Under the pieces are notes generated by a model. That model was not told the origin of the DNA. It worked only from the letters and a program-made list of their open reading frames with translations, and did not search any database. Position numbers and translations under genes: made by a program. From NCBI GenBank assembly GCA_964016885.1, contig OZ024745.1:73346001-73410000 (forward strand): a DNA stretch of 64,000 nucleotides, given 5' to 3'. The stretch is from Eledone cirrhosa. Its lineage: Eukaryota. Of this stretch, positions 33,201 to 54,960 are shown piece after piece; positions within the stretch are counted from its first letter, which is position 1; each line of letters opens with the position of its first letter.

Positions 33201-34159
33201 ATAAATATTTGACACTGAGGTAATTCAACGGTTTCATTAGAAAAAACACCAAATGCTAAAAATCGATATATCATTTTAAATGTTTTCTTTATAAGTGATA
33301 TTGTTTACACACTAACAAAATATGTGGCACGTAATTGTATATACACAACAAGATATACAACAATATCGACCATGCAAAAAATAAATGAAATAAATTTAAC
33401 AAATGATTGGAAATTACCAAAATGGAATATTTTACTTATTTATAATTTGAGGATAAACAATATTTTTCATAAAAATAATTCTCCCCCTCTCTCTCTACCT
33501 CCTCTCTCTTCCCCTCTCTCTCTCTCACTTTCTCTCTCTACCTCCTCTCCCTCATTCTATCCCCCTCCTCTCTCTCTCTCCCTCACTCTATTCCCCCTCT
33601 CTGTCTTCCCTTTCTCTCTCTCACTCTCTCTCTCTCACTCTCGGTCTTCTCTATCTCTCTGTACCTCCTCTCTCTCACTCTCCCTCTCTCTGTACCTCCT
33701 CTCTCTCACTGTCTCTCTCTACCTCCTATCTCTCCCTCTCACTCTCTCTCTCTCTCTCTCTCTCACTTTCTCTCTCCTCCTACGCCTCTCTCTCTCACAC
33801 ACACACACGCACACACTCTCTTATTACTCTCTTTTCGTAATTGTTATAGCGTGGGATTTCGGCCTTGCTGCCACTACTAGCACCACCGTTATGTTTCTCT
33901 CACACGCACACAAGCTTTTACCATCACCTTTCCAAAGCATGATCCACCTGATTCCCCCCTCTCTTTCTCCATCTCTCTCTCTCTTCCTCTCTCTCTCTCC
34001 ACCTCTCTCCCTTTCTCGCACACACACAAACACACTCTTACCATTTCCCTTTTTCAAGATGACAGACGTTTTACGCTATAGAAACACCAACTTCAATATT
34101 ATAAGTAGATAGACAGACATACAGACACGTTGATAGATAGATAAATAGATAGATAGATA

Positions 34160-34209
34160 AATTTCTATTTATTTGCCACGAGGGCACAAAAGAAGGGGAC
34201 ATTTACACA
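34160..34209 (-). mobile_element. 50-bp 3' terminus of a Tx1-like LINE in (GATA)n
   Basis: tttatttgccacgagggcacaaaagaaggggaca matches the 3' ends at ~34232 and ~37192; gata repeats on both sides. Confidence 0.8.
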
Positions 34210-34404
34210 GATAGATAGATAGATATATTTCTTTATTTACCATAAAGGCATAAAAAGAAGGGACAAATACAAAGGGGGAGTTTACATAAAACCGAGTAAA
34301 AAGGGTATAAAATGAAAATAATCGAAAACAACCTCGAAAAAGTGTGCAATCCTTTGCCCGGGGAGCACATGGAGAAGGTGCTCCCCTCTCCTTCACTTCT
34401 TTAC

Positions 34405-35556
34405 CTACAGGATGGTATACAGAGAAGGCCCATTTACACGAGCCATTCTCGCCACTATCACCCACCTTTCATAAAGCTGCCTGTGGCCAAGCTCCTCTCT
34501 CTCCATTCTTATCCTTCTTCCGAAGTGATATCGGAAGAAGTAGACCAGACTATGGCCAGAGAGGAAGCTGCCTGACCTCAGACCTTTCAATCGTGTCCAC
34601 CAAATAACCTCTTTCAACATGGCTATTACGCACAGAAAAACCGCCTTTGCTTCCTTTGTGAAAAAGGGAGGCGGCTTCATTGTCATCACGGATTCGGCGG
34701 TCAATCGAATCGGCGCCACCCGCGACAGCAGTCGTTCGGCGTAGCCCCACAGATCAGCCACGCCCGGACATTGCACCAATGCGTGTGCAACGGTTTCTTC
34801 GTGACGCACGCATCTAGGGCAAATCTTTTTCGAGGGATCCCTGCCCGGGCGCCCGTGTCTGTAGAGCCTCTCTCGAACGGGTAGAGCCCCCCGGTAGCAG
34901 TGCCAGGCCAGTGACTTCTGGAAGTTGTCCATTGTTCCCGGGCCGAAAGTCCTACCGAACAGGCTGGCCAGTTCGTCCTCTTCCATGTCCAGCGACTCTC
35001 CAAGGGTGTCATCGCCCCTGCTAGCCACCAGCCCTCTATAGAATGACGAGGTGGATTCTCCACCGATGGCCGGGTCCGCTTGCCAGAGAGCCCTGAGCGC
35101 CTGGGCACACTCAGTGTGCCAGTCGCCCAGTTTTCCGGATCTTTGCTTGACCCAGGACTGCAGCTCGGTGAGCGAGACGAGTCTCGGAAAGGCTCGTCTC
35201 ACGAACGGAACCCACACCGGTTGACCAGTGAGGAATACCTGTAGGTGCCGTAGCCTTAATGCGTGCCTACGCAACATCAACCACGGCATCCCCAGCCCTC
35301 CTTTCGAAGGTTGTTGGCAGCAGATGGATCTTCTCACCATAGGAGGGCGCTTTTTCCAAAGAAATTGAAAGAGCATGCGTTCCATGGTGGTGAGTGTTTC
35401 CTTAGGGCAAGGCACGATAGTCAGGCGGTAGTAGGTGACGGACGCTATGTAAATGTTCGCCACCTCCGCCCGACCTTTCAGGGACAGCTTACACTTGGCC
35501 CATTTCTGGGTCAGTGCAAACACCTTGCTCGTAACCTCACCCCAGTTCTTTTCCAC
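34405..35556 (-). CDS. C-terminal remnant of Tx1-like ORF2 (post-RT region and zinc-binding domain)
   Basis: LSLKGRAEVAN, SKGGLGMP, CPRCVRHEETVAHALVQC; the frame is open for 383 codons. Confidence 0.85.
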   Translation of the reverse strand: MEKNWGEVTSKVFALTQKWAKCKLSLKGRAEVANIYIASVTYYRLTIVPCPKETLTTMERMLFQFLWKKRPPMVRRSICCQQPSKGGLGMPWLMLRRHALRLRHLQVFLTGQPVWVPFVRRAFPRLVSLTELQSWVKQRSGKLGDWHTECAQALRALWQADPAIGGESTSSFYRGLVASRGDDTLGESLDMEEDELASLFGRTFGPGTMDNFQKSLAWHCYRGALPVRERLYRHGRPGRDPSKKICPRCVRHEETVAHALVQCPGVADLWGYAERLLSRVAPIRLTAESVMTMKPPPFFTKEAKAVFLCVIAMLKEVIWWTRLKGLRSGSFLSGHSLVYFFRYHFGRRIRMEREELGHRQLYERWVIVARMARVNGPSLYTIL

Positions 35557-36559
35557 CTGTTTTATTGAGTGAGGGGTTGGGTGGGACTGTGTTTTGTTTT
35601 TGGGTAATGTGTTGTGTCTGTTTGTGTTGTGGTGGTGGTGTAGTTTTACTGAGGGACGGGTTGGGTGGGACTGAGTTTTGTTGTTTGTTTATCTGTTGTG
35701 GTGGTGGTGGAGCTGGTGTTGGTAGCAGGGTTTTCTTCTTGTTGAGTTGGGGACAAGCCGCCTTCAGGTGCCCTCTGCCTGCACAGATATGACAGGACGG
35801 CCTTCTCCCCTCCACGCTAATGTTTATATACCCGTGGCCCTCTAATAGGATTCTGTCGGGTATTTGGGCAATGCGTTCAGGCTTCATTTGCACTACAAAT
35901 TCTATACCTGTTCCACTGAACGCATTGCCTGTGGTTTTCCCAATGGAAATCACGTTGTCATTCGCTGGATCGATGAAGCCAGCTATGAGCCAGCAGTAGT
36001 CTACATCTGGCATCATCGCATCCAGCCATATGCGCTGAGTTCTTTTACCCATATAAGATGGATAAAAGGTAAAATTTGTCGAACGAATCGGCGACAAAGC
36101 ATATTTTTTTGCCGCTGATTCGTTCTTCATAATAATCGTTAGGTTTCCATACAGCCTGTCTCTTCTTATGAAAGTGGCTTCATTAAGTACTTCTGTAAGT
36201 ACTACTTTAATTTCTGCTTGTGTTGGTTGTTGAGGTTTTTTTGAGATGTTGTTGATGGTGCGGAAAACGACCGTCCGACTTTCAATATCTTTGGTGAGTT
36301 CTTGGGGCATTTTTACCGATAAGATTCCATTTTCCCCTTGAGTTATGTATTGTTTGGCCTTTTTTATTCTTTGTGCCACATCTGAAATATTTTCAGGTAT
36401 ATATGTTAAAGATTTCTTTGTTGTTTGTGCAAATGAAATATTATTGGTGTTGACTTTGTCGTCTGCTTTGCTTTCTGTTATGATGTTGTTTTCAAATGTT
36501 ATTTTTGTGTTTGTTGTGTCTTTGTTTGTGGTATTAATATTGTCATGCAAATCTTTCAA
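35537..36559 (-). CDS. Tx1-like ORF1 (nucleic-acid-binding protein with CCHC knuckle), C-terminally truncated
   Basis: VEGRRPSCHICAGRGHLKAAC followed by P/Q-rich repeats; homologous to 41780-42672. Confidence 0.85.
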   Translation of the reverse strand: MKDLHDNINTTNKDTTNTKITFENNIITESKADDKVNTNNISFAQTTKKSLTYIPENISDVAQRIKKAKQYITQGENGILSVKMPQELTKDIESRTVVFRTINNISKKPQQPTQAEIKVVLTEVLNEATFIRRDRLYGNLTIIMKNESAAKKYALSPIRSTNFTFYPSYMGKRTQRIWLDAMMPDVDYCWLIAGFIDPANDNVISIGKTTGNAFSGTGIEFVVQMKPERIAQIPDRILLEGHGYINISVEGRRPSCHICAGRGHLKAACPQLNKKKTLLPTPAPPPPQQINKQQNSVPPNPSLSKTTPPPQHKQTQHITQKQNTVPPNPSLNKTGGKELG

Positions 36560-37108
36560 ATTTTTTTGTTGTTGAAATCAATGTCCAGATTTGTGTTTTC
36601 GTCATTTTTCTCCGCACATTCGTCTGTTTTTCTTTTATTTTTTCTTTCCTTCTCTATGACGTTAGTTGGGAAGGAAGGGGGGACTAAAGCGTGCGAGCTT
36701 ACAACTCTTACCGCTGTCCCCCCCACCACTATTTTCGTTAGCTTCGTTTAACATTTCTGTCAGACGATTGAACTTTTATGCCACAAATTTTTAAAAAACA
36801 GGTTTTTCACTCCTGGGAGGGGCGAAGATGAGCTGACCCACCGCCTGACAGTTCAGACGGGGGGTCAAGCTACACAATAGTATCAAAATTAAAATTGAAC
36901 TTACAAAATTTCCGCAATAAATTTGAACAAAACTTCTGCGCGAAGTGAATTACATCTCTGCTGTAGAACAGACGACAGCTAGATTGATAGATAGATAGAT
37001 AGATAGATAGATAGTTTGGTAGGCAGGTACGTAGGTATGTAGGTAGGTAGGTATGTAGGTGGGTGAGATATTAGGTAGATATAGAGATAGATAGATAGAT
37101 GGTTAGAT

Positions 37109-37161
<53 letters not shown>

Positions 37162-37425
37162 GAGAGAGAGATAGGTAGATAGATATGTTTCTTTATTAGC
37201 CACAGGGGCACAAAAGAAGGGGACAAATACAAAAGGGGATGTTTACATACAATAAAAACGTGTAAAATATTATCACAAATGCAATTTAAAAATTAAACAA
37301 TTTTCCCAAATAGGGGGAGACATTACATATGGGTAACACATACCCCCGAAAAAAAATGTGCAACCCTCATCTCCAGGAGTACGAAGAGTTTGTACTCCTT
37401 TCCTCTCCTCCTCTTTTTCCTCAAC

Positions 37426-40400
37426 CTACAGGCTGATATAGAGAGAAGGCCCATTCACTCGGGCCATTCTCGCCACTTTCACCCACCTTTCATAAAACTT
37501 GCTGGGGTACAGCACCTCTCTCTGCATCCTGATTCTTCTTCCAAAGTGGTATTTGAAAATAAGAATCAGTTGTTGGCCGGAGAGAAAATGTCTGACCTCA
37601 GCCCTTTCAACCTTGTCCACCATACAACCTCTTTCGCCATAGCTATCACACAAAGGAAAACCGCCTCTCCTTCCTTTTTGAAGGAGGGTGGCGGTTTGAT
37701 CATGACAATGGACTTGGTGGTCAACTGGATTGGTCCCACCCGCGACAATAGTCGTTCCACATAGCCCCACAGGTCGGTGACGCCCGGGCAGTGTATGAAT
37801 GCGTGCGCGACGGTTTCTTCGTCTCGCACGCACCTCGGACAGATCTTTTTGCAGGGTCCCTGCCCGGGCGCCCATGTCTGTAGAGCTTGTCTCGAACTGG
37901 TAGAGCTCCTCGGTAGCACTGCCAGGCCAGGGACTTTTGGAAGTGGTCCATCGGTCCCGGGCGGAAGGTCCTACTGAACAGACTGGCCAGTTCGTCTTCT
38001 TCTACGCCCAGAGTTTCACCGAACACGTCGTCGCACTTGCTGCGGATCAACCCTCTATAGAATGACGAAGTGGAGTCTCCACTGATCGCCGGGTCCGCCT
38101 GCCAGAGGGCTGTGAGCGCCTGAGCACATTCGATGTGCAAGTCGCCCATTTTCCTCGGTCTTTGCTTGACCCAGGACTGCAGCTCGGTCAGCGAGACGAG
38201 TCGTGGGAAGGCTCGCCTCACGAACGGGGCTCACACCGGTTGTCCAGTGAGGAATACGTAGAGAAGCTGCAGCCTGAGCGCGTGTTTGCGCATCGTCAGC
38301 CACGGCATCCCCATCCCTCCGTTGGAAGGGCGTTGGCAGCAGATGGATCTTCTCACCAAAGGAGCCTGCCTCTTCCAAAGGAATTGAAAGAGCGCGCGCT
38401 CCATTTTGGCGAGCGTTTTGGTGGACAAGGCACGACGGTCAAGCGGTAGTAGAAGGCGGACGCTATAAAAGTGTTCGCCACCTCCGCTCGATCTTTCAAT
38501 GATAGTTTGCACTCGGCCCACTTCTGGGTGAGTGCAAACACCTTGACCGACACCTCGTTCCAGTTCTTCTCCACCTGGAGGTCCGGACCAAACCAGACCC
38601 CGAGCAGCTTTACTGGTCCTTCCGTCCAGCCTTGGAAGTGGTCCATCGGAATGCATTGGTTTGCCTCTCCACGATCCGAGTTACAAAACGATGGACTTGT
38701 CCCGGTTCAGCTTCGCTCTTGTGAACCTTTCGTATTCCTTCAGTAAGGTGCCGACCTCCTCGATTTACGAGGCGCTCGACACCATTACTGTCACGTCGTC
38801 GGCGTAGGCCGACGCCGCTTTCCGCAGTCCCGGTTCCAACTTCCTTAGTAGTGGCTCGAGAGTCAATACGTACAGAAGGGAGGAGAGAGGGCATCCCTGT
38901 CGAATGGATCGCGTAGCCGTTCACCTTAACCCTTGAGCAGATGTTGCTGTTATGCATTGCAGCAATCCAGCCCTTGAACACGGGTCCGAAGCCTGCCGCC
39001 TCGAGCACCGCAACCAGGTAACGATGGTCAACCCTATCGAAAGCCTTAGACTGATACAAGTTGATCAGGGCCCCACCGAAGCCGGGTTTACACCCTACCC
39101 TCTCTATGATGTATCGCATGACGTGGAGGTTGTCGTGTATGGACCTGGTCGGGATTGTGCATGTCTGCGCTTCTCCCACCAGGTTCTCGACGACAAGCGC
39201 CAGCCTCTTTGCCAACACCTTGGCCAAAATCTGTAACTGTGTTTAGCAGAGTTATGGGCCGGAAGTTGCCTATGTCATCCCCCTTATTCTCGTCCTTCCT
39301 GACAAGTGTGACTACGCCCCCGGTCACAGAACTGGGAATTCTCCTGTTCTGTTGCCAGTTGCAGTAGACCGCTTCCAGGAGACCGGAGAATAAGTCCGGC
39401 ATTGCTACGTAAAATTCGTAGGGTAGACCGTCGAGACCTGGAGATTTGCGTTTGCCGCATTGGCTCAACGCGTCCCCTATCTCAGCGGCTGAAATCGGCT
39501 TTTCGCAGAACCTTGCCTCGCTGTCCGAGAGTCGTGGTAGGCCGTCGAGGTATGGACTAAAATCCATAGCCCCTCCCGGCGCGCCGCCCTGCCCGAACAG
39601 CTGAGCAAAGTGCCGCTGAAAGGCCGCACACATCTGCTTCGGCTCACGTATCACGCGTCCGTTTTGGTCCTTCAAAGACCGAATCGTGGACTTGTTGCCA
39701 CTTTTTGCCTCCGTCACTCGGGCCCAGCTAACAGCTTTGGCTCCCTCGTTTCCCAGAGCACGTATTTTGCTTCTGACAACGCAGTCCTCATGCTTTGCGT
39801 CGAAGAACTGGCCCAAGGCCGTTCTCGTTGCTAGCACGCTGGCTACGTTGCCACTTATAATTGCCTCTTCTACTTTATCTACCAATTCTTTCTCCGTTCT
39901 ATTTCTATCTAACGTTAATTCTTTACTAAAAACTAACGAGTCTAATCTAACTGCCCTCTTGCGAGAGTACCACCATCTGTTGTTGACAATGGCCCCTGTC
40001 AAGTGCTGTTTAACTAAAGTGCTAATCCGTCTACTGTAGGCTTTGCATGTCGGTAACGACAAGTTCAGCTTCCAGTAGCCGGGTCCTTGTCTATGGGTTC
40101 TATCAAGGTTGACCATGCAGGTTACTAGTTTGTGATCTGAATAGGCAACCATGAACATTTGTGGACAGCTTAACATGTCCCTATCTTTATTTCTAACTAG
40201 AACCCTATCTAGGTACGATCTAGATGTTCCGCTGCGATTAGTCCACGCCCACAGTGGCACAGTCGGAAAATCTAGTCGATATCTATCGGCCAGGTCAAAT
40301 CGGCCGATTAACTGTTTGATGATGTTACACCCCCCTTTATCGGGACATGCTCCCACATAGTCCCAACGTGCATCTAGGAATCCATTCCAGTCCCCCACTA

Positions 40401-40812
40401 AAAGCAAGGAGCGGGACGTTCCCAGAAAAGCCTCTAGACGTTTGAAGAAGTCTGGCCGCGGTGTCCCGGATGGGGCATATGCGGCCACCAGCCTGAAGGC
40501 TCCACCTTCACTACCGTCAACGTCTAGGACCACCAGTCGACCCTCCGGGTCCAGATGTACCGTCTGTGTTACGAGGCCCAGGTGTTTCCGTAGCAAAACG
40601 GCAACCCCGTCCCCATCCCCCGGCTGACAGAGAGATGCGTAGATCTCAAAGTCATCGAAGATGGGGGCCAGCTGTCGCTCGCTGTGGATCCTGGACTCGT
40701 AAATGGCTACTACATCCATACTGTGCGACCTGAGGTCGTTTAAGAGTTTGCCCTGTTTCCAGGGCATCCCCAGGCCGCGTACATTCACACACCCAACTCT
40801 TATATTGGCCAT
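37426..40812 (-). pseudogene. ORF2: APE endonuclease - RT - zinc-binding domain, several frameshifts
   Basis: MANIRVGCVNVRGL, LLVGDWN, SYLDRVL, SDHKLV, KSPGLDGLPYEFY, NFRPITLLN, KAFDRVDH, YADD (~38795-38806), CPRCVRDEETVAHAFIHC. Confidence 0.93.
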
Positions 40813-40849
40813 GTTGGTTCTGAAAAGTTCAAAGAGGAGAAGAAAACAC

Positions 40850-41642
40850 TCACCTCTTCGTCTCCCGGGTATCAGGCCGCACGGTTTCCATGGGGGTGTT
40901 AGAGGAGTTGTCTGGGTGGGTGGTGGTTTCCGGCAGGGTGGGGACGGAGATGTTTGGTGGGGTGGGGGTGTCTGGGGTGACTGTGTCTGGGGTGAGGGTG
41001 GGGAAACTTTTTTAAAGGACCCGGTTAATGGGTTTAACACAAGGATTACCCACGTCCTTAGGAAAGTTTTCCTTTAAAGACTTATAACTGTCCGCAGGGA
41101 CCCTAATCATCTTTAAATTAGGTTTGTCTACACAGTTCGAAAAAGTTTTCCCTTCGGTGAAAACCGAAGGGTCGTTGGAGATGACCTCCATTAAACTTTT
41201 GTTTTTACTGTTTATGTATGTGTAATGTTCTTGTTGTGTTGCGGTGGTTTTTGTCTGTTGTTCTTGTGGGAGCTTTCGTTTTGTCGTAGGTGTTTGTGTT
41301 TGGAGTGATGTCGTGGTTTTGTTTTCGGGACGGGGGGGGTTTTGTTTGTAATGTTTGTGTTGTTTGTGTTGGTGGTTGTATGTTTGTAGTGATGTTTTTT
41401 GTTTATTTTGTTCTTGTGGTGTCTTTTCTTCTTTCTTTTCGAACGGAGAGGCTCTCCCTCATCATCACTTGGTGATGATGTGGGGGCCTCGTCCGTTGTG
41501 GTCTCCGTGTTATTTGGAAGGGGGTATGTTTTGGGGAGCTGTTGTGTTTGTGGGTGTTTTTGCAGTGGTTTTAGGTGGAGTGGGGTTGGGTGGGACTGTA
41601 CTTGCAGGTTGGTTTGTTGTTCTTGTTTTGGTTGTGTTTGCG

Positions 41643-41709
<67 letters not shown>

Positions 41710-42672
41710 GGTGTTGTTGTTGTTGTTGTTGTTGTGGTTGTGTTGTTGTTTTGGGTGTTGGCAGTAGTGGCTCTTTTTTTTATTTAGTTAACTGAGGACA
41801 ACAAGCCTTCAGGTGACCACTGCTTAAACAGTGGTAACATGAAGGCCGCCTACCCTCAACAGAAATGTTTATGTGTGAAATTCCATCCAGAGGCACACGT
41901 TGGGGTATTTTAGCTATCCGTTCTGGCCTCATTTGGACCAGAACTTCTATGCTTGTACCATTGAATGCGCCTCTGGAGGACTTTCCCACCGAAATGATGG
42001 TGTCTTCGTCGAAATCGATAGAGCCAGTTAGAATCCACCAGACGTTTACATTTGGTGCAATGTTCAAAATTTTTATTTTTTGAGTTCTTTTTCCCATATA
42101 TGTGGGGGAAAAGGTGTAAAGAAGAGGGGGGGGGACACAATCGGTGATACAGAATATTTTTGTGCTGTCAATTGGTCTTTCAACAACACCGAAATGCTTC
42201 CAAAAAGTTTCCCTTTTTGGATGAAGGCAATATCCTTCATGGAATTCTTCAGAACCAGTTCAATATCGTTTTGGGATAACTGAACTGGTTTTTTCGACAC
42301 ATTTGAAACCGTCCTAAAAATTACTGTTTTTAGAACAGTTTCTCTGCGTAACTGTTGAGGAGAAGTGATGCTGAAAGCACCACTCTCACCAAAAGTTACG
42401 TACTGTTTTCCATCGCTTAACATTTCCCTAGCATTGGAAATGTCAAGGTATGTGAACAGTTCCGTCTTTTGGACGGTTTGAGCAAAATAAATCTTTTCCT
42501 TGTTCGTGGAGTTGTTCGTGTTGCTGCTGTTGTTGTTGGTGGTGTTGTTGTTATCATTGTTGCTGTTGTTCTTGTTGTCATTATTGTTGTTGTTGCTCTG
42601 GTTGGTGTTGTTTATATTTTGCATGTTATTGGTGTTTGTTTTAGTGTTGATGTTACAATCAACGTCCGACAT
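40850..42672 (-). pseudogene. ORF1 of copy A, with frameshifts, CCHC knuckle, poly-N and poly-Q tracts
   Basis: VEGRRPSCYHCLSSGHLKACC; (CAA)n at ~41643-41750; frameshifts near homopolymer runs at ~42100 and ~41775. Confidence 0.8.
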
Positions 42673-43003
42673 CGTGTTTTCAAAACTGACGATGAGGTGG
42701 TGAGAGTAGGTGAATGCGAGCTTAACACTCTTACCGCCTCTCCACCACTTCTAGTTATGAACGCAGCGTTCATGACTGAATGCAAGGTTTGTTAACAATA
42801 TTTTTTATGACCGGCGAAATTTGTTTCAAAACGAAAATTTCACCCCAGGGAGGGGTGAAGATGACTTGACCCACCGTCTGAAAGTCCAGACGTGGGGTCA
42901 AGCTATAAAATAGTAATAAATTTAACAATAAATTTTTGATTTCTTACTTAGAAAATCAACAAAAACTTACCAGCGAACTGGCACACGTCTCAAGTAAAAC
43001 CAG

Positions 43004-43086
<83 letters not shown>
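43004..43086. repeat. (GATA)n microsatellite
   Basis: About 20 perfect units. Confidence 0.98.
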
Positions 43087-43087
<1 letters not shown>

Positions 43088-43792
43088 TATGAATACAATA
43101 TAAGATATAAATCAAGTGAAAGACCTTTATTCAGCTAGCACTGAATAAGCTTAGAGTAGAGATGAAGAAGCTTCCATTGCTTATCTAGTTTCGTTGTATT
43201 TTACATAGAATGACAATCAAACTAAAGTGAATTGATTGGTAGTGAGGTGAGGAATAGTTGTGTTTAGAAGGAAGTGCTAGAGGCCAAAATAGCTGGAGTA
43301 ACTAAATGACTGTAAATGTCGGAAAAATTCTTTAAGGAAATACAAGAACGATTGAGCCGTGTTTGAATCCACTAGATGGAGACACAAACACTCGTATACC
43401 CATACAAACAGTTACATACACATACCCATGGATGCTGACAGTTACACACACAAATACATGAATCTGCAAGATCAATAAGTACACACTCACACATACGTAC
43501 GCATTTGCAGCAAACACGAATACACTACTTGAATAAGCGCGCGTACACACACGCAACACATACATGAACATATATATAAATATGTATAAATAAATACATA
43601 ACAATAAGAGCATGAATACACATGAATACACATTTTCGACTATAGCATCTATTAAACGTTCCCATTCATTATCAATTACGTTATAGTAGCCAGACGAGTA
43701 TGTGGTCGAATCTGAAACTTGGCTGCTATTTCTGACATTGTGAATGACCACGTAGTTGTCCTCTCATTTTCTCGAATCAGAGTGTTAATAAC

Positions 43793-44322
43793 AATAATTG
43801 TTTCTACTTTTGGCACAAGGCCAGCAATTACCGAGTGCATTACTGGTACTTTGTGTTATCGACCCCGTAAGGATGAAAGGCAAAGTTAACCTCTGTGGGA
43901 TTTGAACTCAGAATGGCAAGGGCTGCAACTCTATGCGTTAAAGCATGGCGTCTGACCCTCTACCGGTACTGCCAATCCACTAATAATGCTTCTACTTTTG
44001 GCACAAGGCCAGCAATTATCCCAGTGCATTTTATCGACCCCGTAAGGATGAAAGGCAAAGTTAACCTCTGCGGGATTTGAACTCGGAACGTAAAGTGCCA
44101 TAACTCTATGGTGCAAAGCATGGTGTCTGACGCTCTACTGATACTGCCAAATGGTTTCTAATATAAGCACAAAGCCAGCAATTTGGGGAAAGGGAATGTC
44201 GATTAAATCGACCCCAGTGCATTACTGGTCTTTATTTCATCGACTCCGTAAGGATGAAAGGCAAAGCTAACCTCGGCTGGATTTAAACTCAGACCGTAAA
44301 GAGCCGTAACTCTATACTGCAA
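43793..44322 (-). mobile_element. Three head-to-tail SINE family 1 copies
   Basis: 43793-43980, 43981-44152 and 44153-44322. Confidence 0.88.
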
Positions 44323-52070: not shown

Positions 52071-52833
52071 GATCAAGTGATTGTCTCGTTTTTTGAAGTT
52101 TGTGTTACAGATAGTTAGGTTATTAGCGTCACAGAATTCTAGGATTCTGGAGCCTTCCTCATTTCTACTACCAAACCTTCTTCTTTTTTATATATCTCTA
52201 TGTGACGTTATATGTATATTTTTAATATATTACATATTTCTTTTATATATGTGTATATACGTATGTGTATATATAGATGTATATATATATGTATATATAT
52301 GTATGTGTATATATGTATGTGTATGGTTATATTGTTTATATATGTGCATGCTTATAACAAGATGCATAATTTCATGTATGACCCATTGTGTATCTTTATA
52401 TGACTTTGTGTATATATCCTATTTGTGTGTATATATATATGTGTATATATATATATATATACACAAATAGGATATATACACAAAGTCATATAAAGATACA
52501 CAATGGGTCATACAATGGGTCATACATGAAATGATGCATCTTGTTATAAGCATGCACATATATAAACAATATAACCATACACATACATATATATACACAT
52601 ACATATATAAACATATATATATACATCTATATATACACATACGTATATACACATATATAAAAGAAATATGTAATATATTAAAAATTTACATATAACGTCA
52701 CATAGAGATATATAAAAAAGAAGAAGGTTTGGTAGTAGAAATGAGGAAGGCTCCAGAATCCTAGAATTCTGTGACGCTAATAACCTAACTATCTGTAACA
52801 CAAACTTCAAAAAACGAGACGATCACTTGATCA
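52070..52833. repeat. Inverted duplication (~360-bp arms) centred on a TA-rich tract; copies the first ~108 bp of the RTE fragment plus its flank
   Basis: 52070-52430 is the reverse complement of ~52460-52833. 52726-52833 encodes GFGSRNEEGSRILEFCDANNLTICNTNFKKRDDHLI, in frame with the downstream RTE. Confidence 0.92.
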
Positions 52834-54960
52834 CCTACAGATCAGGGGAACATACCAGCCAGGTAGATTATATCCTTAACAGAAGACGTATCAGAGTGTC
52901 TGTTGTAAACACTAAATCCCCCATGAAGAATGCACCTTCCAACATAGACTCATAGTTAGCGACCTCATAGTCAGGACGAGACATACTTGACAACAGAGGA
53001 GGACTATCCTAAGGAGAAGAATATGGCAGTTAAAGGACCCCACAGCCAGTAACAAATTTAAAAGCATATTACTTGATGCTTTTGACAGTAAGGAAGAGCA
53101 ATTAGAGACGTACAATATAGAGGAACAGTGGGAATTCCTGAAAGTTAACCTGCTGAAGGCGACAGTTGAAATCTGTGGCTGGAGCAGACCTATAGGCAGG
53201 AGGAGAGTAACGTGGTGGTGGAACAGTAAGGTGGAGGAGTCAATCAAGGCCAAAAAGCAGGCTTGGAAAGTATGGCGGGATGGGGGAAGTAGAGAAGACT
53301 ATCAAGTAGCCAGGAGGGAAGCTAGGAGACAAGTGTACTTTGCAAGAAGGGAAGCAGACGAAAGAAAGTTCAAGCATGTTCTACAACGCGAAGACCAAAA
53401 ACGTGAGGTGTTCAGGATTGTTAGGCAATGTGTCAAGGAAAACCGTGATATTGTCGGGGAGAAGTGTGTCCGTAATGATGATGGTGTACTTGCCATCACT
53501 GATGCTGATAAGAAGGTAGCTTGGAAGTGTCACTACGAGAGGCTACTAAATGAGGAGAATAAGTGGGAAAAAGATAGTCTGCCCCACATCGATCCAATAG
53601 AGGGACCAGCAGTGCAAGTTGAAGGTAGTATAATAAGTAAGGCAATCAAAGATATGAAGACAAGCAAGGCACCTGGGCCTTCGGAGATAGTTGCTGAAAG
53701 CATCTGGAACGGTGGGACACACTGTGGTCACCCGGATAGTAAACCAAGTCATACAGAACTGTGTCATACCAAATGACTGGCGTAGCAGCATCATCTTTAA
53801 CTGCTACAAGGGTAAAGGAGATGCCCTAGATAGGGGAAACTATAGACGCATTAAATTAATTGACCAGGTCATGAAGGTCACAGAAAAAGTTATAACACAA
53901 CTAATAAGAGAGCAAATTGATCTAGACGAAATGCAGTTTGGGTTTGTGTCAGGTAAAAGTACCACAGACGCCCTTTTCTTTGTACGACAACTACAGGAGA
54001 AGTACCTAGCTAAAAGTAAACCCCTATACTTAGCTTTTGTTAACTTGGAGAAAGCATTTGACAGAGTCCCCCGCTCGATTATCTGGTGGGCCCTTAGAAA
54101 ATTAGGGGTTGATGAATGGCTGGTGAGAGCTATACAAGCCATGTATAAAGAAACAGTCAGCAAGGTTAGAATTAACAACGAATATAGTGAAGAATTTAGC
54201 ATAAAAGTTGGTGTTCATCAGGGCTCTGTTCTTAGTCCCCTCCTATTTATTATTTCCCTTCAGGCTATAACAGAGGAGTTCAAGACCGGCTGCCCATGGG
54301 AACTTCTATATGCAGATGATCTAACGCTCATAGCTGAATCGATGGCTGAACTAGAGAAGAAATTCCAAACATGGAAGCATGGCCTAGAATCAAAAGGCCT
54401 TAAAGTTAACTTGTCTAAGACTAAAGTTCTAGTATGTAGGAAGGAAAATAGGGCACAGGTCACCATGGGAAATGGCCATGCTCAGTGTGTAGGGAAGGAG
54501 TAGGCAGAAATTCCATTTTATGTCCCTAATGCAAAGTATGGGTGCATAAAAGATGTAGTGGGATCACAGGTAAGCTATCTAAGAACGTAGATTTTATATG
54601 TGGCCGGTGCTCAGGTGCAATAGGTAGCAAGTGTCCACAGGATACTAGCTCCTTCTATTGCCCAGATGTCTCTATAGAAATAGTGGACACCTTCCGTTAC
54701 CTGGGTGACAAACTCAGCAGTGGTGGAGGGTGCTCTGAAAGTACAGTAGCCAGAGTCAGAACGGGATGGAAAAAGTTCAGAGAGCTTATACCACTATTGA
54801 CCACTAAAGTTTTCTCTCTAAAAATGAAAGGCAGACTGTATGATGTCTGCATACGAACTGTTATGTTACATTGCAGTGAGACATGGGCATTGTGTGCAGA
54901 GGATCTGCGCAGACTGGAGAGGAACGAAGCATGCATGCTCCGCTGGATGTGTAATAGTAA
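52726..54960 (+). pseudogene. RTE-clade LINE fragment: APE C-terminus - RT - PHD-like Cys cluster; frameshifted
   Basis: HLITYRSGEHTSQVDYIL, KAPGPS, KGKGDALDRGNYR, FVNLEKAFDRVPR, GVHQGSVLSPLLF, LLYADDL, WVHKRCSG...FICGRC, FRYLGD. Confidence 0.93.

Follow-up and report, generated by a model that had tools for sequence, protein, structure and literature searches.

A 64-kb window (positions 73346001-73410000 of contig OZ024745.1) of the 3.0-Gb Eledone cirrhosa genome contains a stack of long interspersed elements (LINEs) embedded in (TATC)n/(GATA)n repeats. Our analysis of this stack and of related copies elsewhere in the genome points to a lineage of apurinic/apyrimidinic endonuclease (APE)-type LINEs, likely of the Tx1 clade, that occupies this microsatellite in one orientation and probably inserts by target-primed reverse transcription. 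The strong, strand-specific targeting itself is very probably real, whichever part of the element selects the site.

The window carries three LINE insertions, all on the minus strand and all in a single (TATC)n tract (Table 1). A sequence-only reading of the window had described co-oriented insertions of 50 bp, 2.8 kb, and 5.8 kb with GATA repeats at both ends and no poly(A), and each of these features is present. Its count of at least two subfamilies is now refined to three (A, B, and E). Read 5' to 3' on the minus strand, the order is (TATC)21, the A copy, a compound microsatellite of 204 bp whose last part is (TATC)7, the B copy, about four TATC units, the E stub, and (TATC)7. Each insertion is bordered by (TATC)n on its own sense strand, and its 3' end runs from AATAAA-GAAA directly into TATCT. 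All six arrays of at least three GATA/TATC units in the window lie at junctions of these insertions. The 50 letters of the stub recur without a difference where a young copy of family E has its 3' end. The B copy has its deletion point at 35559/35560; it retains the N-terminal half of open reading frame (ORF) 1, from 36754, and the C-terminal part of ORF2 with zf-RVT (35559-34408). We rejected the idea that this 2.76-kb copy represents a non-autonomous family. Its deletion is private, the junction being found at 0 of 29 other B 5' ends, and a 2.73-kb copy (L244) is deleted differently. ORF2 of the A copy contains at least four frame changes, as judged from tblastn frames, and the start of its APE domain at 40812, proposed in the sequence-only reading, is borne out by Pfam and by an alignment with L1 ORF2p.

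The repeat was examined as a target by scoring junctions of copies across the genome. Copy searches yielded 818, 192, 1196, 253, 131, and 1213 candidate places; each time, about 40 of these received a score and 30 were excised. The sampled copies are the best-scoring 30-40 per search and represent neither a random draw nor copy numbers. A strict test required at least two TATC units within 25 nt of the junction on the sense strand, for which 20 evenly placed 10-kb stretches gave a background of 0.18%. The key set was obtained for family A with a 66-nt 3' query lacking flank and comprises 29 copies outside the window, 26 of them with a resolved 5' junction. These 5'-truncated copies (64-1238 bp) have TATC at the 5' junction in 23 of 26 cases and on the opposite strand in none. 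This result contradicts the possibility, raised in the sequence-only reading as grounds for refutation, that TATC is only a 3' tail beside nonrepetitive 5' flanks. The strict 3' test was passed by 21 of the 29 copies. Full-length 5' ends carry TATC in 18/29 A copies and 21/29 B copies; among those that pass, 12 (A) and 8 (B) lie within 120 nt behind the 3' end of another copy. Family E has TATC at 38/40 5' ends and 37/40 3' ends, and family D, with rough boundaries, at 21/30 3' ends and 11/21 5' ends. The apparent 5' junctions of family C and some of those of family D were artifacts, caused by the lack of a reference, and are excluded from the evidence. A control RTE-type LINE from the same window has TATC at 0/22 and 0/30 of its ends. 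In 200 kb of background, (TATC)n covers 76 bp as compared to 8318 bp of (TA)n, a difference of about 100-fold, and yet few copies lie in (TA)n. At the 5' junctions the repeat exceeds the 20% of flanks that a single sequence type must surpass for an element to be called target-specific in PMC4494074.

Target-site duplications also bear on the origin of the repeat. A duplication holding nonrepeat bases is seen in 25 of 132 junction pairs, some of which are coincidences of stacked tails. Clear duplications are 11-21 bp long and start with TATCT (L240, 15 bp; L241, 19; L247, 18; L047, 11; L033, 14; L102, 16; L355, 21; L373, 18). Because these duplications contain nonrepeat bases, the repeat units must have come from the target. 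Together, the junction tallies, duplications, and controls support well the earlier suggestion that specificity for (GATA)n/(TATC)n is kept across subfamilies.

The subfamilies are clearly distinct. A, B, C, D, and E share 72-85% pairwise nucleotide identity, with A and B 79% identical over their common ORF2 part. At least six 3'-end variants (A-F) were recognized, all ending in AATAAA-GAAA and none with poly(A). A search with the 3' end of subfamily C, in which common words were skipped, gave no candidates, and C and F were seen as neighbors only. A hairpin with a 5-nt loop is predicted upstream of AATAAA in A, B, E, and the sister family G described below (window positions 37185-37220, 34225-34260, and 34161-34195); this predicted structure may be an RNA recognition signal. 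Family E is young: 37/40 copies are full length (about 5.7 kb) and 97-99.8% identical to one copy, and many encode a 611-residue ORF1 and an ORF2 of more than 1090 residues. Near-identical full-length copies occur in head-to-tail tandem arrays with the target repeat alone between them (L344-L345, L448-L450, and L441-L442). Part of family E is present in 16 of the 22 sequencing runs listed, none of the listed holders being RNA, and its 3' part is covered by contigs from four other organisms. A metagenome scan with protein P0003 gave no match, a scan of viral contigs found nothing, and a scan with alignment A1 returned 73 distant loci, at which TATC/GATA arrays of at least four units were absent.

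The relationship was also viewed from the arrays. The genome contains 174,303 overlapping matches to (TATC)6. From the 27 arrays of at least six units that head the C1 list, the first 22 were taken by position, and two already known to flank E copies were dropped. Of the remaining 20, 12 lie within 120 bp of a co-oriented element end, and one has an opposite-strand end. Some array pairs in this sample are the two ends of one insertion. This occupancy suggests that the elements may make or lengthen many arrays.

A genome protein search with a distant relative returned 38 places with a 1150-residue open frame, and the 30 that were excised form the sister family, G. Family G (L384-L413 and L416-L485; for example, C4:157086400-157093500) is young and intact, with a length of 5.8 kb, a 636-residue ORF1, a 1139-residue ORF2, and 837 candidate places. 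Its DNA is 71-74% identical to that of A, B, D, and E. The 3' ends run into (ATT)n in 30/30 flanks and into TATC in 0/30; in an independent 3' search, 28/30 showed at least three ATT units, against a background of 0.28%. At the 5' junctions, 18/20 copies have at least 18 bp of pure ATT, one has a variant array, and one is unclear, and a second set shows ATT at 20/20. Tandem copies are often exactly 18 bp apart, and duplications of 17-18 bp with variant bases are found in L419, L472, L478, and L479. Only two 5'-truncated G copies were examined, of which L479 has ATT in its duplication and the older L439 failed, so the truncation test is weak for this family. Other ATT-associated 3'-end variants lie upstream of L475, L476, L479, L484, and L485. 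An ORF2 tree unites A, B, and E (100/100), with G and P0001 next to this clade and an Argonauta protein outside. The endonuclease domains of A, B, and E are 72-82% identical to one another and 60-65% identical to that of G, and 34 fixed differences separate the two groups. Ahead of the catalytic Asp, the hairpin loop has the sequence N[RH]SG[QT]SRS in A, B, and E versus NRIGSSRS in G. Because G occupies (ATT)n in the way that its sisters occupy (TATC)n, a single target change among these octopod elements, in either direction, is likely.

Position, orientation, truncation, and duplication are read directly from the copies; the remaining steps of our proposed mechanism are taken from target-primed reverse transcription. 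The endonuclease would nick the (AGAT)n strand. The last bases of the element are also the first bases of the duplication, which leaves the position of the cut uncertain by 1-2 nt, but it is probably a T-A step. Such a step would fit both the TATC and ATT families as well as the poly(T)-A junction of L1 (PMC1950540). The RNA would read past AAUAAA into a few AUCU units, which would pair with the nicked strand and prime reverse transcription, and a second nick about 15-20 bp further would yield the duplication. Transcription of full-length RNAs probably also begins within the upstream repeat, and the RNAs would carry a few units. Since each insertion duplicates the target, later copies would stack head to tail. 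Site selection probably needs endonuclease preference and tail pairing together. Both predict TATC at both ends, and a tally of flanks therefore cannot separate them.

The lineage belongs among APE-type non-LTR elements of the L1 group: it displays ORF1, an ORF2 with APE, reverse transcriptase (RT), and a C-terminal zinc motif, 5' truncation, and target-site duplication. The ORF1 core was modeled from an intact E-family ORF1 with 71 aligned sequences. The predicted structure has a pLDDT (predicted local distance difference test) of 93, and its top PDB matches are proteins with tandem RNA-recognition motifs (RRMs); a single-sequence fold reached a pLDDT of 37 only. One CCHC knuckle follows the tandem RRMs, and zf-CCHC is found in 22/71 of the aligned proteins. 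On this model, ORF1 is type I (RRM plus CCHC), not Transposase_22; type I ORF1 is linked to Tx1 in non-mammalian animals (PMC5203782). RT trees were built with 104 rows (349 domains dereplicated at 55% identity) and with a 40-row subset, both without sequences of named Tx1 families. The octopod RT falls in the L1/Tx1 group, outside vertebrate L1 (100/100), and the RT position, the ORF1 type, and the missing poly(A) all set the lineage apart from vertebrate L1. The RT is sister to a large clade of unnamed proteins (P0002-P0019 and P0114-P0200, with ORF2 of about 1150 residues) at 52-54% RT identity, one cluster of which has 732 members. The nearest named protein, from Argonauta hians, shows 67% RT identity. 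A fish anchor with a ZCCHC3-type ORF1 domain (P0043) falls, like the octopod RT, outside L1, but the two form no clade. On the strength of the ORF1 type and of RT trees with this composition, membership in the Tx1 clade appears quite likely.

Several observations weigh against a simple account of endonuclease-guided insertion into TATC. The 5' repeat is absent in 3/26 truncated A copies, and 8/29 copies of that set fail the strict 3' test. Some B copies lie in (TA)n (L244, and the 3' ends of L238 and L101), and some targets have only 1-2 units (L240 and L247). In several young full-length E copies (L350, L352, and L364), and also in G (L469-L471, L473, L477, and L481), a variant base on the 3' side has no counterpart on the 5' side. 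Target duplication therefore does not account for all of the 5' repeat in full-length copies, which probably bring some repeat units with them at that end. In length, the endonuclease loop equals the loop of the human L1 enzyme, which is promiscuous. At L493, the 3' end of an opposite-orientation element, lacking AATAAA, directly abuts (TATC)13; this locus either has been inverted or departs from the strand rule. Specificity is not absolute. Some of these points would suit a relaxed endonuclease that nicks many T-A steps, with only nicks that pair with the (AUCU)n or (AUU)n tail going on to integrate. The RNA alone would then select the site, and a target switch would require only one mis-insertion beside a new repeat. 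The very short targets, the L1-like loop length, the fact that every duplication begins with bases that also end the element, and some G copies with unique sequence 1-6 bases upstream of an 18-bp duplication are all consistent with such selection, as is the finding that L1 integration sites are shaped by factors beyond nicking (PMC1950540). However, a loop motif common to three TATC families differs in G, together with the 34 fixed differences, a pattern that descent also explains. At least five subfamilies at 72-85% nucleotide identity keep one target, which is easier if a protein holds the specificity, and the wild-type Tx1L endonuclease nicks nearly only its own site (PMC1950540). The dinucleotide TC lies upstream of the duplication in 12/25 cases versus 60/544 in the background, which might hint at a choice by the endonuclease, but most of these cases are in arrays or behind another copy. 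We consider selection by RNA alone unlikely and favor joint selection by endonuclease and tail.

It could also be argued that there is no targeting: RT slippage would produce TATC as a 3' tail, the 5' repeat would belong to the element itself, arrays would grow afterwards, and stacking would be secondary or reflect survival in gene-poor repeats. The 12/20 arrays near a co-oriented element end and the repeat units that full-length copies appear to bear at their 5' ends would be expected on that account. However, truncated copies broken at many points still have the upstream repeat (23/26), a finding that already largely refutes it. In addition, the duplications hold flank-specific bases, orientation is strict, and both the RTE control and family G lack TATC in the same genome, so that this explanation is very improbable. 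A different doubt concerns the name rather than the mechanism, and is compatible with selection by endonuclease plus tail or by RNA alone. The lineage may have branched off separately within the L1 group of invertebrates, and its specificity for microsatellites would then have arisen without a link to that of the fish families Kibi and Koshi. Its RT forms no clade with P0043 (39% identity), a BLASTP comparison of ORF1 with P0043 was not significant, ORF1 has a single knuckle and no Pfam ZCCHC3-RBD match, ORF2 is short (1135-1150 residues), and the closest relatives are the unnamed proteins noted above. The type I ORF1 and the RT position outside vertebrate L1 argue for Tx1 instead, as do atlas matches (leads only) that include Tx1-149kDa and ZCCHC3-RBD clusters and the annotation of 13 recently active L1-Tx1 families in Octopus vulgaris (PMC13282606). 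We regard a non-Tx1 origin as rather unlikely.

The concept of a Tx1 family specific for a microsatellite is already known. Teleost Kibi and Koshi, of the Tx1 clade, use (TC)n and (TTC)n (PMC4494074, PMC3812793) and are likewise APE-type L1/Tx1-group LINEs; the octopod lineage, compared here by description, differs in using (TATC)n and in having an (ATT)n sister. The crocodilian families Tx1-1_Crp, Tx1-5_Crp, Tx1-6_Crp, Tx1-1_Gav, and Tx1-2/3/5/8_AMi use (TTCC)n or (TTTC)n (PMC4494074). They share with the octopod lineage a tetranucleotide target and several related families, and changes between microsatellites are already known among them, but their targets are polypyrimidines, unlike TATC and ATT, and the host here is an invertebrate. 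The octopod junctions are in TATC register, with no (TC)n, (TTC)n, (TTCC)n, or (TTTC)n target found. Dong uses (TAA)n (PMC3812793), the same repeat class as the family G target, and is assigned to the R4 clade with a restriction-like endonuclease (PMC4640811); Dong-R4 is also listed in Octopus vulgaris (PMC13282606). Because family G has an APE domain and ORF1, a shared (TAA)n target would be convergent. Among APE elements of the insect R1 clade that insert in short tandem repeats, Waldo uses (ACAY)n and Mino (AC)n (PMC3812793), and SART1Bm uses (TTAGG)n, for which three units and the A in the unit suffice (PMC7265360); SART1Bm ends in poly(A), whereas the octopod lineage ends in its target repeat. 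Togen is specific for (TG)n (PMC4640811). The 13 families in the Octopus vulgaris L1-Tx1 library account for 421 recent insertions in a paper whose main text does not use the word target (PMC13282606); these families, known here from a table, are probably the same or related elements. Tx1 does not appear in the examined passages of PMC9115989 and PMC3124438, and PMC3747384 offers further background. A literature search found no LINE with a GATA/TATC target, although Repbase, Kojima and Fujiwara 2004, or supplements could still hold one. On balance, (GATA)n/(TATC)n seems more probably than otherwise an undescribed target.

Table 1. Features of the LINE stack, by position in the window
Feature	Position	Strand	Basis or remark
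Imperfect (GATA)7 array, 3' flank of stack	34132..34160	.	Sequence
E-family (young) 3' stub, 5'-truncated, 50 bp	34161..34210	-	TATC on both sides; equals 3' end of E copy L359
(GATA)~4 spacer between B copy and E stub; likely target-site duplication (inferred)	34211..34224	.	Sequence
Family B copy, 2756 bp, both ends kept, internal deletion of about 3 kb	34225..36980	-	Identity of 96% and 94% to L239, a full-length copy of B
Compound microsatellite spacer: (GATA)7 at 36986-37013, degenerate TAGG/TAGA units, (TA)25	36981..37184	.	
Family A full-length copy, 5819 bp	37185..43003	-	Both ORFs broken (frameshifts, stops)
A 3' terminus: predicted small hairpin followed by AATAAAGAAACAT, which runs into ATCT repeats; poly(A) absent	37185..37220	-	
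ORF2: APE endonuclease (40812 to about 40070), reverse transcriptase, zf-RVT	37426..40812	-	Pfam PF03372, PF00078, PF13966
ORF1, broken: two RRM-fold domains and one CCHC knuckle, Asn/Gln/Pro/Thr-rich linkers	40860..42773	-	End 40860 approximate
Perfect (AGAT)21 array, 5' flank of stack	43004..43087	.	

Other repeats were observed in the window. A short repeat on the minus strand (window 43780-43990) has a 3' GCC-N5-like hairpin followed by AGAAAC and ATT units, resembling the LINE tails, and the same end occurs upstream of G copies L421 and L424. This repeat is possibly a short interspersed element mobilized by the ATT family. The broken LINE on the plus strand (window about 52750-54960) served as outgroup and control; its other copies end in (GAT)n, and often lie in (TA)n, and we presume its RTE assignment from its motifs. 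The assembly has four contigs of 379-443 Mb next to many of 35-137 Mb, which for the likely host group is a karyotype of uneven sizes.

How APE-type LINEs gain or change a target is an open question that this sister pair addresses. The mechanism of microsatellite targeting is described as not well understood (PMC3812793), and specificity did not travel as a module when loops were grafted in L1 (PMC1950540). With their intact ORFs, endonucleases 60-65% identical, and clean, different targets, the two close sister lineages make the choice between endonuclease and RNA tail testable by swaps. As a tentative proposal, young intact sister families may partition the non-polypyrimidine microsatellites (GATA)n and (TAA)n, targets undescribed for Tx1-type elements, and may flank about half or more of long GATA arrays; in its boldest form, the repeat read through in the RNA would programme the site. 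Our results would extend microsatellite-specific L1/Tx1 elements, likely to a cephalopod, and tie many GATA arrays to one LINE lineage. If the partition holds true, the sister pair is a natural experiment on LINE target change.

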